From: an uncultured Gammaproteobacteria bacterium
Lineage (GTDB): Bacteria; Patescibacteriota; Patescibacteriia; UBA1558; GWA2-36-10
Direction: 5' to 3'
Assembly (NCBI GenBank): GCA_964515785.1
Contig: CAZEWH010000001.1
Coordinates: 134,941-198,940, forward strand
DNA length: 64,000 nt
Shown: piece by piece, positions 30,001 to 36,000 of the stretch
Numbering within the stretch: the stretch's first letter is position 1
Layout of the letters: each line of letters begins with the position of its first letter
Made by a program: the position numbers

Positions 30001-33000
30001 TTGGCTTTGCTAGACGAGTACCAGAATCTGCGATCAAACAACATCATTGTGATATGGCTTTGGCTATCCAAGATGTTACTGAAAACATAATATTAAAGAT
30101 GGCTAGTCATGCCAAAAAAATAACTGGTAGCAATAATTTATGTATGGCCGGAGGTGTAGCTTTAAATTGTGTATCAAATAGCAAATTACTTACAGCCAAA
30201 ATATTTGACAATATCTTTATCCAGCCAGCGGCTGGTGATGCTGGTGGTGCTCTAGGAGCAGCTTTGGCTGCTTATCATATCTTTTTTGATAAAGACAAAG
30301 CAAAGCCAAACCCAAAAAATGAGGTTTTTGACCCTTATTTGGGTCCAGAATATTCAGATATTGATGCCAAAAAAGTTTTCAAAAAATATAAAGCTCGTTA
30401 TAAATACTATAATAATTTTGATGATTTATCTGATAAAGTCGCAGATTTGATAAATCAGGGCAATATAATTGGTTGGTTTCAGGGTAAGATGGAGTGGGGA
30501 CCAAGAGCCTTGGGTAATCGTAGTATTATTGCAGATGCCCGCAACAAAGATATGCAACTCAAGTTAAATCTAAAAGTAAAGTATAGAGAAAGTTTTCGAC
30601 CCTTTGCTCCTGCTGTCATAGAAGAGGATATAAATAATTTTTTTGATTTTGAAGGGCATTCTCCATATATGATATTTGTAGCTGATGTTTTGCAAAATAG
30701 AAGAAATGATCTACCTGACAATTATAATTCTTTGGCAATGAAAGACAAATTATATTATAAAAGGTCAGATGTGCCAGCTATCACTCATATCAATTTTTCA
30801 GCTAGGTTGCAATCAGTGCATAAAAATCTGAATAAAAGATTTCATCAACTAATCAAAAATTTTAAAAACAAAACCGATTATGGCATAGTTATTAATACTA
30901 GTTTCAACGTCAGGGGTGAGCCGATTGTTTGTACCCCTGATGATGCTTATAGATGTTTTATGAATACAGAAATAGATTATTTGGTGGTTAATAATTTTTT
31001 ATTAGACAAAAAATCTCAAATAGCTTGGCCCAAAGAAAAAAGCAGCCATAAATACAACGATCAATATGAATTGGATTAAAAAAATCATAAAAAGTATTTT
31101 TAAATTACTTATTAGCTTAATAATAATTTTTGTTGTTTTAGAATTATTGTTAAGTTTTTATGATCCAATGCAAATGAGAATAGCTAATGATAAGATAGTT
31201 TTACCAGCCAATAAACATATAATAATAAACAATGATTTTAATCCAGAATTATCTGAAGAAATAATACACACCAAAAATTCTCTAGGATTTCGAGGTGAAG
31301 AAATGCCCGATAGTTTTGAAGAATATTTATCTATTGTGTCTTTGGGTGGTAGTACCACAGAAGCGTATTATATATCAGATGATATGACTTGGTCATATTT
31401 ATTAGATGAAAGACTTGAAAACAACTTTAATAAAGTTTGGATCAATAATGCTGGCCTTGATGGTTTATCAAGTTATGGAATGAATATTTTATTAGATGAT
31501 TATCTAGTTGATATCAAACCAAAAATTGTTTTGATGCTTATGGGATCCAATGATGTAGGGCGTGATGATTTGGGAGAGTATGACAAGAGATTGTATATAA
31601 ATTCAACAAAGAAAAGCAAAGTTATTTCATTAGCAACTAATATTAGAAGAGTTTACCAAGCAAAAGAAATGGGTTTGTTACATGGTGGATTTCAAATAAT
31701 GGAAGCAAATGAATTGTTTATAGAAGAAGATGAAGCTGAAAAAATTATAAATCAACATAAGACAGAATACATTGAGGCTTATAAAACTAGGGTTTTAGCT
31801 TTGATAAACACAAGCAGACAAAATAATATTGAGCCTATTATAATTACTCAACCAACTATGATGGGTGGTGGAATAGATGAACAAACAGGCAAAAACTTGG
31901 ATTTACTTGAATTTTCTGGTATGAATGGAGCTGTGTATTGGGACGTTTTACAACTCTATAATAATGCCGCTAAAGAAGTTGCTAATAATGAAGGAGTGTA
32001 TATTATTGATTTAGCTGCTGAAATGCCAAAAAGTTCTCTGTATTTTTATGATGCAATCCATTATAATAATAGTGGTGAAGCTAAAGTAGCTGAGATCATT
32101 GCTGATAATTTGTTTGGTTATTTAGGAGAACAATATAGCGAATTTAAAAAGTAATAATATAAACATGGGGCATATTATAAAAGATTTGTGGAAGTTTTTA
32201 AAAGAAAGAAAAATTTGGTGGTTTTTACCAGTCATCGTTGCTTTGTTATTATTTGGTGTCTTGATCGTAATTGGTGGCGGTTCAGCTATCACACCTTTTA
32301 TTTATACATTATTTTAATTTATATAATAATATGATAAATATAGCTGACAGAAAAAAAGATTTAGAGACCATGGCTGTGATGGCAGCTGGATTTTTAGTTT
32401 TGTATTTTATTTTTTCTCTAAAAACTTTTTTAATAATTTCTTTTGTATTGTTATTCATTGGCATATTTTTTATCAGACTTAGTAATATTATAAATAAAGT
32501 ATGGACAAAATTTGCCCATGTTTTAGGATTAATAAATTCAAAAATTATTTTGACTATTATTTTTTTCATAATAGTAACGCCGATTGCTTTATTAAGAAAA
32601 TTATTTCGTAAATTTAATAAAAAAGATATTAATAACAAACATAGTAATTATCATACTAGAGATCATATTTATATTGTAGAAGATTTTGAAAAAATGTGGT
32701 AAGCATATATTAACTCAAGTTTTATGTGTGGCATATTTGGTATAACTTTGACTAAAGAATCTGATATAAGAGCAAAGTTATTACAATCAACAACTAAAGA
32801 TTTATTTAAATTATCAGAATCTCGCGGCAAAGAAGCATCGGGACTTTCTTTGTTATACGATAATAAAATCAAAGTATTGAAGCGTCCCATGCCGGCTTCT
32901 GACTTGATTGCTAGTCAAGATTATAAAAATATTTTTAGTGAGCTTAGTAATACTGATTTAAAAAAATCTTTAACTCTCATTGGCCATACTAGACTGGTTA

Positions 33001-36000
33001 CTAACGGCTCTTTGGATGGTTATAATAATAATCAGCCTATTATCAAAGATGGATTGGTAGGCATCCACAATGGTATTGTGGTCAATGATAATAAGCTATG
33101 GCAGGATTTTCCAGACTTACATCGCCAGTATGAAGTTGATACAGAGATTATTTTGTCTTTGATAAGGATGCATCTTAAACAAGGACAATCATTGATAGAA
33201 GCTCTAAAAAAAGTATTCAAAGTTGTCCGTGGTACAGTGTCTACTGCTATTTTATTTGAAGATATTGGTCATTTATTATTGAGTAGTAATAATGGCTCTC
33301 TTTATGTTTGTTTCAATGAGGCAAAGTCAGTTATTATTTTTGCTTCAGAACGTCGTATTTTGGAAGAATTAATCAATAAAAAAGAAATTAGCAATATATT
33401 GGGTAAATATCATATCAGACAAATCAAGCCTCAATCTGGATATTTGATAGATTTAAATAATCTAGACACAAAAAAGTTTTTCTTAAATAAATCTGCAGAT
33501 AATATTGCAGATATTAAAATATCAGATAAACAAAAATTTGAAATTTTAGATTTAAAAAACAAACAAGAAATTCAGTCAGATTTTTTGTCACAAACTAAAA
33601 CTGACATCAATGCTTTGATTAATAGCCAGGCAACTTATTTATCCCAAGTAAATCAAGCTGTAGGTAACTTGCAGCGTTGTACTAGATGTATTTTGCCATC
33701 TACCATGCCTTTTATTAAGTTTGATGATCAAGGAGTGTGTAATTATTGTCACAATTATAAAAAAATAAAAATATTAGATAAAGATTTATTAAATAAAGAA
33801 GTTGCTAAATATAAATCTAAAAAAAATAATAAACCAGATTGTCTAGTGCCTTTGAGCGGAGGACGAGATTCAAGTTTTGGTCTTCATTATATAAAGAATG
33901 AATTAAAAATGAATCCAGTAGCTTTTTCTTATGACTGGGGAATGATTACTGATTTGGCACGTCGCAATCAAGCTCGCATGTGTGGACAATTGGGTGTAGA
34001 ACATATTTTGATATCTGCTGATTTGAGAAAAAAGAGGAACAACATAAGGAAAAATGTTCAGGCTTGGCTAAAAAAACCAGATCTAGGAACTATTCCTCTT
34101 TTTATGGCTGGTGACAAACAATATTTTTATTATATAAATAAATTAAAAAAACAATTAAATACTGATTTGATTGTTTATTCTGAAAATTCATTGGAAAAGA
34201 CTGATTTCAAATCTGGTTTTTGTGGAGTAAAACCAAAGTTTGATATAGATCATGTTTATGATTTTGCTTTGTTTGATAAAGCAAAACTATTATTTTATTA
34301 TTTATGGCAATATGCTTCCAATCCTGCTTATATAAATTCTTCGTTGTTAGATTCTTTGGGGGCATATATTTCATCTTATTTTATGTCACACGAGTATTTT
34401 TATTTATTTCGTTATATTCGTTGGGATGAAGAAGAAATAAATAATATTTTGATCAATCAATATGATTGGGAAGTAGCTACTGACACTGATAATACTTGGC
34501 GGATAGGTGATGGCACAGCTCCTTTTTATAATTATATATATTACACAGTAGCTGGTTTTACAGAAAATGATACTTTTCGTAGCAATCAGATTAGAGAAGG
34601 AGTGATTACTAGAGATGAAGCTTTGAGATTGGTAAATAGAGACAATCAGCCTCGCTATGAATCAATGAAATGGTATTGTGATACTATAAATATAAATCTT
34701 GAAGACACTATAAAAATAATTAATAAGATACCGAAATTATATAAAATTTAATGTATTTTAATTTTTTAAAAAAGAAATTTATCTATAAAGTTTTTTCTTA
34801 TATCTTTATTTTTTTAATTCTATTTTTTCTTGGAAAAAGTCTTGTTTTAAATTGGCAAGAAGTGAGTGTTTATAAATTTTCTTTTAATTATTATTATTTA
34901 ATATTATCTTTCCTTTTGTTTTGGTTGCACATATTTTGTTTGTCTTTGGTCTGGAAAAAACTTATCAAAAAAATAGAACCACAATTTGGTATATCAAATA
35001 TTGAAGCAGTTAGAGTTTATATTTTGTCAGAATTTGGTAAATATGTTCCCGGTCAAGTTTGGGCTATTGCTTGTCGGACATACCTTGGTCAAAAATATGG
35101 AGTTTCCAAGAAAAATTTATTAATTGGTTCTTTATTGGATGCTGGACTTTTATTATTAGCTATTATTACTCTAGGCTTGTTATTTTTGATAATTAGTTTT
35201 AATAATATTTCTTGGTATCTGTATATAGCTTCTTTTGGTATTTTATTGATTGGTTTGGTACTTATTCATCCAAAAGTTTTTTATCCAATTTTCAATTTTA
35301 TATTACGAAAACTAAGAAACACTGAGATAGATTCGTCTATTTTCTTATCTTATAGCACAATATTGCTTATAGTAGTATACTATGTAGGTGTAGTTTTTAT
35401 TGCAGCCATAGCCTTTATCTTCTTGATTATGTCCATAACTTCAGTTAATATCAGTGATATGGCAGGAATAATAGCGGCTTTTTGCTTGGCCAATGGCCTG
35501 GGAGTAGCTGCTCTTTTTGTGCCAAGCGGTTTAGGAGTTCGAGAAGGAGTTATGGCAACATTATTAAAGTCTTATTTTCCTTTTAGTATAGCTATTTTGA
35601 TTTCCTTATTAGCTAGAGTTTGGACTACTGTCAATGAAGTTTTATTTGCTGTATTAGCTTATACATTTTTTAAATTAAAAAATAAAGAATGAAAATTATA
35701 ATAACTGCCAGTGCTTATCCTGAAGGCAAAGGTATTGGTGGTGCAGAAAAGCAAGCTAATTTATTGGCTGAACATATGATGGCTGGTGGGCATGAGACTG
35801 TTTTTATGGCTTTGCGTGGAGATAAGTCCGGTTTGTCAAAATCAGCAACTGATCTACCTATATACACCGTAGGACCCTGGAACAAAAACACTTGGCGTTA
35901 TTTTTTTAGTATTCTAAAATTTGTTCGTCAGCATCGCCCTGATGTTTGGTATGTTAGAGATTTTACTTTTTTATCTTTAATGGTAATTATAGCCAAAATT

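Follow-up and report, generated by a model that had tools for sequence, protein, structure and literature searches.

A GlmS-like glutaminase domain fused to an N-acetyl-sugar amidotransferase-like domain in surface-glycan gene clusters of bacteria and archaea

A gene for a predicted two-domain amidotransferase

The 64,000-nucleotide stretch of DNA analysed here (the window) comprises positions 134,941 to 198,940 of contig CAZEWH010000001.1 in assembly GCA_964515785.1, from an uncultured bacterium placed by GTDB in the Patescibacteriota. A GC content of about 30% and a best homologue in Curtissbacteria likewise suggest that the organism may be a Patescibacterium. Within a plus-strand gene array at about 13.1-38.6 kb, which itself lies inside a glycan cluster of about 7.3-41.2 kb, there is a gene in which the glutaminase domain of a class-II, or N-terminal nucleophile (Ntn), glutamine amidotransferase (GATase) is fused to a zinc-ribbon/PP-loop domain of the N-acetyl-sugar amidotransferase (NASAT) type. 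It consists of a single ATG-to-stop open reading frame (ORF) at exactly 32724-34751, encoding 675 amino acids, and 14 contigs from several samples carry the identical protein. The signatures of the two domains are MCGIFGI at residues 1-7, CTRC at 319-322, CNYC at 339-342 and LSGGRDSS at 377-384. The parts of the gene, and those of its neighbours that figure in the argument, are collected in Table 1.

Table 1. Coordinates in the window of the fusion gene, its parts and its candidate partners (GT2, family 2 glycosyltransferase; HMM, hidden Markov model; TM, transmembrane; AF2, AlphaFold2; pLDDT, predicted local distance difference test; rSAM, radical S-adenosylmethionine)
Feature	Coordinates	Strand	Evidence
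Ntn glutaminase plus NASAT-like PP-loop amidotransferase, whole gene	32724..34751	+	ORF, domain HMMs, homologue alignment, AF2 model
GlmS-like class-II (Ntn) glutaminase domain, about residues 1-255	32724..33488	+	GATase_6/GATase_7, GlmS model, PDB sequence and fold matches
Cys2 codon, predicted N-terminal nucleophile once Met1 is removed	32727..32729	+	MCG invariant in 32 homologues; aligns with Cys1 of GlmS/AsnB
Variable interdomain linker, about residues 256-316	33489..33671	+	No consensus in 32-homologue alignment; pLDDT <50 at 283-289
NASAT-type PP-loop ATP-pyrophosphatase domain, residues 317-662, fusion-specific subfamily	33672..34709	+	TIGR03573; 8WEX by sequence and fold
Tetracysteine zinc ribbon CTRC...GVCNYC (C319, C322, C339, C342)	33678..33749	+	Family motif; four Cys invariant
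PP-loop LSGGRDSS, residues 377-384	33852..33875	+	SGGXDS signature; S378-G-G-R-D-S383 invariant
LPG_synthase_TM (PF03706/UPF0104) flippase-like membrane protein, downstream of fusion	34751..35692	+	Pfam E = 2.4e-13
GT2 with C-terminal TM helices, polyprenyl-phosphate sugar synthase type; probable pathway partner	27199..28074	+	PDB, NCBIfam, recurrence in loci
PMT_2-type GT-C glycosyltransferase, overlaps GT2 start; probable pathway partner	25814..27217	+	Pfam PMT_2 E = 3.8e-15
rSAM-SPASM and MetW-type methyltransferase genes; possible accessory cassette members	36792..38572	+	Pfam matches

In the N-terminal half, the Pfam models GATase_7 and GATase_6 match residues 84-213 with 38.3 and 38.0 bits respectively, against gathering cut-offs of 25 and 27. 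The NCBIfam models for GlmS, PurF and AsnB, in that order of strength, are limited to the first 200-280 residues, and the GlmS N-domain model matches residues 1-282 with E = 5e-18. GlmS also provides the top PDB sequence match for this half (1xff), while in fold the leading Foldseek matches of the N-domain in the PDB include structures of GFAT and GlmS. Catalytic residues were compared in an alignment of 32 full-length homologues of 50-59% identity, to which E. coli GlmS and AsnB were added afterwards. The invariant columns of the N-domain comprise Cys2, R34-G35, H88/R90/T93, N116-G117 and D139-T-E, and it is with these invariant residues that the nucleophile, the glutamine-binding Arg/Asp and the Asn-Gly oxyanion hole of the two E. 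coli enzymes align; R90, D139 and N116-G117 correspond to R73, D123 and N98-G99 of GlmS. In GlmS numbering, the residues common to the fusion and the GlmS/GFAT glutaminase domain are Cys1, Arg26, Arg73, Asn98-Gly99 and Asp123. With GlmS as the top match in both sequence and fold for residues 1 to about 255, the N-domain is nearer to GlmS than to AsnB, but the fusion differs from GlmS and GFAT in having no SIS isomerase domain and in an acceptor domain that is entirely unlike theirs.

The C-terminal half matches TIGR03573, the NCBIfam model of the N-acetyl sugar amidotransferase WbuX, from residue 317 to residue 662 (model positions 2-339 of 344, E = 1.3e-42). The top PDB sequence match is 8WEX (E = 5.8e-13, residues 330-646), which is also the first Foldseek match in the PDB for the C-domain, with E = 7e-14, a probability of 1.00 and a TM-score of 0.61 normalised to the target. 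This entry is a NASAT from Legionella (LpNASAT) and the sole solved structure of the family, whose defining signatures are SGGXDS and CXXCXn[GN]XCXXC, the latter binding zinc in 8WEX (PMC10607449). The zinc motif is present in the fusion, with C319, C322, C339, C342 and G337 all invariant in the 32 homologues, as is the whole of the PP-loop, S378-GGRD-S383. Alignment shows that the fusion and the canonical NASATs have in common the zinc ribbon, the PP-loop and a C-terminal motif S..I..G..TR.EAL; the segments YDWGM.TDL, PDLG..PLFMAGDK, FKSGFCG, WRIGDGTA.FYNYIY and GFTENDTFRSNQIREG are specific to the fusion and absent from the canonical enzymes. When scored on TIGR03573, six fusion proteins including the present one reach 111-146 bits, the five others lying at 111-142, as against 262-325 for four canonical stand-alone NASATs.

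Modelling of the whole chain by AlphaFold2 with the family alignment gave a pLDDT of 89.2 and a predicted TM-score (pTM) of 0.89, with only residues 283-289 of the linker of low confidence. Because the pTM is this high for a two-domain chain, the model argues for a fixed mutual arrangement of the two domains. AsnB and beta-lactam synthetase superpose only loosely on the model, with a root-mean-square deviation (rmsd) of about 22 A, and the fusion architecture was not found among the solved structures in the Foldseek search of the PDB.

An Ntn glutaminase joined in one chain to a C-terminal PP-loop adenylating synthase is also the plan of AsnB and of the AsnB-like WbpS, and related proteins go in IMG and UniRef under the names 'glucosamine--fructose-6-phosphate aminotransferase' or 'asparagine synthetase B', in keeping with the match of the N-terminal 200-280 residues to GlmS and AsnB models. 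That the fusion is nevertheless an ordinary housekeeping amidotransferase, whether GlmS or AsnB, is hardly credible. The GlmS label was rejected, since the models are matched over no more than positions 1-260 of their 601-607, with 61-65 bits where the cut-offs are 381-418, and no SIS domain was found by Pfam in the 675-residue protein. Identity with plain AsnB was likewise rejected: Pfam finds no Asn_synthase domain (PF00733) in the protein, TIGR01536 is restricted to residues 2-221, and in BLASTP against E. coli AsnB the similarity comprises the N-terminal nucleophile region (E = 0.013) and an eight-residue PP-loop, the C-terminal half giving no significant match. None of the GlmS and AsnB models comes anywhere near its curated cut-off (65 against 381, 61 against 418, 32 against 267). 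The fusion differs from AsnB and WbpS in that its synthase belongs to another PP-loop family with an additional zinc ribbon, in the large global rmsd, and in an Ntn domain nearer to that of GlmS.

An earlier reading of this DNA, made from the sequence alone, had proposed that a class-II GATase domain is fused directly to a zinc-ribbon/PP-loop domain, and this is borne out both by the Pfam and NCBIfam models (GATase_6/7 in the N-terminal half, TIGR03573 almost full-length in the C-terminal half) and by the predicted fold, in which the C-domain is closest to 8WEX and AsnB fits loosely. A C-terminal half alignable with AsnB over its full length, which would have made the protein a plain AsnB, is not what was found. 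The architecture thus stood as proposed; what that reading lacked was the commonness of the family and its membrane-pathway partners, to which we turn below.

Distribution of the family and the proposed chemistry

At least 588 GTDB species genomes encode the fusion, and identity stays at 45-60% from phylum to phylum, archaea included. Full-length relatives with 50-59% identity number more than 120 and come from both bacteria and archaea (Methanoperedens, Methanophagales). Such recurrence puts the architecture well outside anything that chance would produce. Loci were compared among the best 80 from these species genomes, of which 17 are from Patescibacteria, 15 from Planctomycetota, 15 from Bacteroidota/Ignavibacteria, 10 from Proteobacteria, nine from Chloroflexota and three from Acidobacteriota, with one from a Woesearchaeote; the set includes the cultured carriers Legionella londiniensis ATCC 49505, Oceanibacterium hippocampi CECT 7691 and Bosea sp. 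WAO. When the C-domain by itself served as the query of an exhaustive phmmer search, 3,684 representatives came within E <= 1e-3, and 412 passed E <= 1e-30. Since 141 of the 150 best C-domain representatives are at least 600 residues long, with the PP-loop domain starting at about residue 250-320, the fused form is the normal state of this subfamily. Departures from it exist: locus L005 holds, beside a full fusion, a stand-alone 362-residue paralogue of the fusion-type C-domain (17809-18897; 158 bits on TIGR03573, PP-loop altered to SGGGRDS), and P0243 (398 residues) may be another member without the Ntn domain.

The same count bears on the question of whether the Ntn domain is active. Glutaminase activity has been lost in some Ntn-PP-loop relatives, one of the fold matches is beta-lactam synthetase, and the linker varies and is modelled with low confidence, so that the Ntn domain might be regarded as a regulatory or scaffolding remnant, with the PP-loop domain using free ammonia. 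However, beta-lactam synthetase has no nucleophile Cys, unlike the fusion, in which the residues of glutamine hydrolysis (Cys2, the Arg/Asp pair and the Asn-Gly oxyanion hole) are invariant across phyla and archaea, and the Ntn domain is retained in those 141 of 150 representatives. An inactive remnant is therefore very improbable.

The relatives are unnamed, called 'hypothetical', or mislabelled as GlmS or AsnB, the RefSeq label being 'hypothetical protein'. Some RefSeq versions of the orthologues at the L. londiniensis (L050) and Oceanibacterium (L059) loci, of 620, 627 and 637 residues, begin at a downstream codon and so lose the essential MCG N-terminus, an annotation error by which the glutaminase nucleophile would go unnoticed. 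In literature searches on N-acetyl sugar amidotransferases and acetamidino formation, the fused form was not found described. The family is large, well conserved and unnamed, and its architecture brings known domains together in an understandable way; thousands of 'hypothetical', 'GlmS' or 'AsnB' proteins, including those of Legionella, Patescibacteria (the candidate phyla radiation, CPR) and archaea, could be re-annotated accordingly.

Canonical NASATs occur in a documented three-gene set, WbuX with HisF2 and HisH (PMC11340318). Homologues of HisH and HisF were found neither in the 64 kb of the window nor in 75 of the 80 loci. The remaining five loci have both, and each of them also has a separate stand-alone NASAT of 376-439 residues adjoining the pair; in L049, for example, the gene order is HisH, HisF, NASAT, fusion, short-chain dehydrogenase/reductase (SDR), GT2, acetyltransferase, flippase. 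(A further 'stand-alone' match, in L083, is in fact the C-terminal portion of the fusion gene at that locus.) HisH and HisF were considered as hidden partners of the fusion and rejected, as they are found only beside canonical stand-alone copies and never as its sole partner. The class-I partners belong to the canonical enzyme, and the fusion does without them. The sequence-only reading had held that canonical enzymes use separate class-I partners, which agrees both with the flanking of the stand-alone NASAT by HisH and HisF in these five loci and with the documented triad, and that the fused protein is self-contained, a view that the context of the window and of the 75 other loci supports.

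From the domain content, conserved signatures, fold, distribution and context we infer catalysis, ammonia channelling and the identities of substrate and product (amidino as opposed to amide): the protein is probably (with a probability of roughly 0.6) a self-contained, single-chain N-acetyl-sugar amidotransferase that depends on glutamine and ATP and forms an acetamidino sugar. Removal of Met1 would expose Cys2 as the N-terminal nucleophile, and the GlmS-like Ntn domain would hydrolyse glutamine to glutamate and ammonia. The ammonia would then move inside the protein to the NASAT-type C-terminal domain, where the PP-loop would bind ATP and the carbonyl oxygen of the N-acetyl group of an amino sugar would be adenylated; displacement of AMP by ammonia would yield a positively charged acetamidino (acetimidoyl) sugar. 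The Cys4 zinc ribbon, at the pocket rim, would be structural. On this scheme the Ntn domain stands in for the separate HisH/HisF-like pair that delivers ammonia to the canonical enzymes of the WbuX/WbpG/PseA type.

The precedent for such chemistry lies in the NASATs themselves. WbpG and WbuX have been given an acetamidino-forming role (PMC10607449), and it is genetics that ties the family to acetamidino formation: deletion of MMP1081 in M. maripaludis, for example, led to loss of the acetamidino group from the glycan (PMC2952790). With WbuX, WbpG, PseA, MMP1081 and LpNASAT the fusion shares the zinc-ribbon and PP-loop fold, the signatures and the surface-glycan context, and presumably also the ATP-dependent conversion of N-acetyl to acetamidino. 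It differs from them in its source of ammonia, a covalently attached class-II Ntn domain in place of a separate class-I HisH/HisF pair, in the inserts peculiar to its C-domain, and in the neighbours it favours, namely a TM-anchored GT2, a flippase-like protein and a GT-C.

Several observations tell against an acetamidino-forming enzyme of this kind. Despite the full-length match, the C-domain scores 146.4 bits on TIGR03573, below the curated cut-off of 203.2, and motifs of the canonical NASATs such as HHES.FT+F are replaced in the fusion by WRIGDGTA.FYNYIY, PLFMAGDK and FKSGFCG; together these leave room for a substrate, and perhaps even an amidated group, other than that of the canonical enzymes. 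The five loci that pair the fusion with a complete canonical WbuX/HisH/HisF set show that it is not a simple replacement, and that the two occur together implies that they differ in substrate or position. The window's cluster was found to lack genes of a dedicated amino-sugar pathway. Moreover, functional biochemistry is lacking for every NASAT, and the reaction in which ATP yields AMP plus PPi has been inferred from structure (PMC10607449). As it falls below the curated cut-off and does without the HisH/HisF partnership, the C-domain of the fusion is filed here as a distinct, Ntn-fused subfamily that shares the defining motifs and fold of the NASATs.

The product of the same two-domain chemistry might instead be an amide, if the PP-loop domain adenylated a carboxylate (C6 of a uronic acid or the carboxyl of a nonulosonic acid) to give a carboxamide, which would make the protein an analogue of WbpS. 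PP-loop enzymes often adenylate carboxylates, as NadE, AsnB and QueC do, and NadE is among the structural neighbours of 8WEX; the pocket motifs of the fusion are unlike those of the canonical NASATs; and UDP-sugar dehydrogenases, which make uronic acids, are encoded in about 8-9 of the loci. We nevertheless regard an amide product as unlikely, for the best HMM and fold family is NASAT and not AsnB or NadE, a separate AsnB-type gene able to do the job is already present in 13 of the 80 loci, and the strongest partner is a polyprenyl-phosphate GT2 of the N-acetylhexosamine (HexNAc) type and not a uronic-acid enzyme.

The surroundings of the gene were surveyed by clustering its neighbours de novo with BLAST; clusters 2, 3, 6 and 15, spurious antisense ORFs inside the fusion gene itself, were discarded. 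A surface-glycan cluster is the setting of essentially all 80 loci, in more than 10 phyla. In 26 of the 80 there is at least one family of the diacetamido-uronic-acid route (UDP-sugar dehydrogenase, Gfo/Idh/MocA oxidoreductase, DegT aminotransferase, left-handed beta-helix (LbH) acetyltransferase), the families that feed WbpG in P. aeruginosa. Further recurrent neighbours are WecB, SDRs, the AsnB-like genes already mentioned, methyltransferases and MOP flippases, the last in 30-35 loci, although counts of MOP flippases and of large multi-TM proteins are non-specific because any Wzx/Wzy glycan cluster has them. This setting makes it rather improbable that the substrate is not a sugar at all and the glycan cluster incidental. 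In favour of a lipid head group, peptide or nucleobase it can be said that the PP-loop superfamily includes the tRNA-base and cofactor enzymes TilS, QueC, LarE and TtuA, with weak HMM matches here, that these four are structural neighbours of 8WEX (PMC10607449), and that adjacency and fusion to UPF0104 proteins would also suit a phospholipid head group (PMC12713373). Against these stand the glycan-related context in virtually every locus and the full-length HMM and fold match to NASAT, and an acetamidino sugar remains the favoured product.

Classical class-II glutamine amidotransferases are represented by GlmS, PurF, AsnB and GltB, and the fusion would give this class a new synthase partner. 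As a NASAT family member in one polypeptide it should be far easier to reconstitute in vitro than the three proteins WbuX, HisH and HisF, and for that reason amidine-forming chemistry would become directly assayable.

A possible lipid-carrier pathway

The strongest neighbour of the fusion is a GT2, present in 49-56 of the 80 loci and standing at position -1 or -2 in 33 of 75. C-terminal TM segments, two to four in each, are found in 60 of the 66 members of the GT2 cluster. For the GT2 of the window, the nearest solved structures are ArnC, GtrB and DPMS and the nearest NCBIfam models AglJ, PgfS, ArnC and PpgS, all of them polyprenyl-phosphate glycosyltransferases. On the other side of the fusion, its stop codon is overlapped by 1 nt by the start of the UPF0104 gene (TAATG). 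By profile search, an LPG_synthase_TM/UPF0104 gene directly adjoins the fusion in seven of the 80 loci, mostly those of Patescibacteria and the Woesearchaeote. In L087, from another metagenome, the PP-loop domain is itself fused to LPG_synthase_TM (P0177, Pfam E = 4e-35), with an Ntn-only gene immediately upstream, and flanked as in the window by a GT2, a MetW-type methyltransferase and an rSAM-SPASM protein. There (5186-8271) the Ntn-only gene encodes 251 residues and is followed 60 nt later, in another frame, by the 756-residue PP-loop-LPG_synthase_TM protein; the split falls within the linker region and, on this single contig, is either real or an assembly frameshift. In 12 loci a methyltransferase is the immediate neighbour of the fusion (position -1 or +1). 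Three loci (L012, L025 and L080) have the contiguous order GT2 with TM segments, methyltransferase or acetyltransferase, fusion, UPF0104, PMT_2 GT-C, and the same GT2, fusion, UPF0104 and PMT_2 parts recur in L063 and L043; all four are present in the window.

Proteins of UPF0104/COG0392 have been treated as flippases that are fused or adjacent to AglD-type GT2s, PMT/STT3-like GT-Cs, and pairs of deacetylase and glycosyltransferase (PMC5898192; bioRxiv 10.1101/2022.03.11.483950). In the gpgSDF system of P. aeruginosa, GlcNAc-PG is the product of a glycosyltransferase and is turned by a deacetylase into cationic GlcN-PG, for which the predicted flippase is a UPF0104 protein (PMC12713373). The logic of the window's genes resembles that of this system, HexSDF, ArnC/ArnD/ArnEF/ArnT and the archaeal AglD-UPF0104 systems: a membrane-associated glycosyltransferase would attach an N-acylated amino sugar to a lipid, a soluble enzyme would alter the N-acyl group, UPF0104 or another flippase would move the product across, and a GT-C would transfer it (PMC12713373, PMC5898192). 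The step catalysed by the fusion would differ in being an amidotransfer, from N-acetyl to acetamidino, and not a deacetylation or deformylation. By analogy, the gene context suggests that the fusion would act on a lipid-linked HexNAc and edit its N-acetyl group ahead of export.

It is tempting to go further and to see in the fusion, besides a new class-II glutamine amidotransferase, the sugar-editing step of an undescribed four-part lipid-carrier pathway of surface decoration, a proposal that must be called tentative, with the odds somewhat against it. In such a pathway the ArnC/GtrB/AglD-like GT2 would load HexNAc onto polyprenyl phosphate or another membrane lipid; the Ntn-NASAT enzyme would turn the lipid-linked N-acetyl group into a cationic acetamidino group at the cytoplasmic face; the UPF0104/PplT protein would flip the modified lipid-linked sugar across the membrane; and the PMT_2-type GT-C would pass the sugar to a glycan or protein outside the cell. 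As in pathways of the ArnD/NaxD/GpgD type, a positive charge would be unmasked on the carrier, but by amidotransfer and not by deacylation. If the lipid-carrier link is true, this would be a widespread route to a permanently cationic cell-surface sugar, bearing on charge-based resistance to antimicrobial peptides and on phage/host recognition, and the UPF0104 flippase-like proteins would gain a defined cargo.

Cultured proteobacteria differ in this respect. In L. londiniensis and Oceanibacterium the genes beside the fusion are of the ATP-grasp type (cluster 28, about 390 residues; two copies in L. londiniensis) in place of a TM-anchored GT2, which suggests a different pathway context.

Other genes of the window

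The glycan cluster of the window further contains many GT4 glycosyltransferases, three B12-binding rSAM genes, two proteins with Wzy_C and tetratricopeptide repeat (TPR) regions, a Wzx and a Bac_transf initiating transferase. The genes immediately upstream of the fusion, at 29208-32702, encode a carbamoyltransferase of the NodU/CmcH type, an SGNH hydrolase, a DUF5989 protein of 50 residues (32165-32317) and an SxtJ-like protein, to which the gene callers give 123 residues (32331-32702) and the ORF list, with a TTG start, 143 (32271-32702); the DUF5989 gene falls under the 80-residue minimum of that list. These four were rejected as partners, being kept in only 0-3 of the 80 loci. They resemble the SxtI/J/K trio and most likely form a separate module that O-carbamoylates the glycan.

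The B12-binding rSAM genes (15473-16918, 18099-19553 and 21672-23186) are interleaved with the GT4 genes in an operon-like array, and such genes also lie near the fusion in the Patescibacteria loci L014, L029, L037, L038 and L055; their recurrence suggests an unusual C- or N-methylation of the glycan. The tandem Wzy_C proteins (O-antigen ligase/polymerase-like; 7363-9540 and 9553-11853) each end in TPR repeats, an architecture found also near the fusion cassette of L012 (16373-18610). Two ORFs have no Pfam match at E <= 0.01, one of 1220 residues at 2936-6598 and one of 492 residues at 23189-24667, the latter inside the glycan operon and with a homologue in one of the 80 loci.

Upstream, the cluster is bounded by genes for an extracytoplasmic function (ECF) sigma factor and a DUF5667 protein (610-2548). 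Downstream, at 41347-50333, lie genes for a methyl-accepting chemotaxis protein (MCP), CheW, CheA and response regulators, identical to those annotated in L001, together with a protein bearing a type IV pilin-like N-methylation motif.

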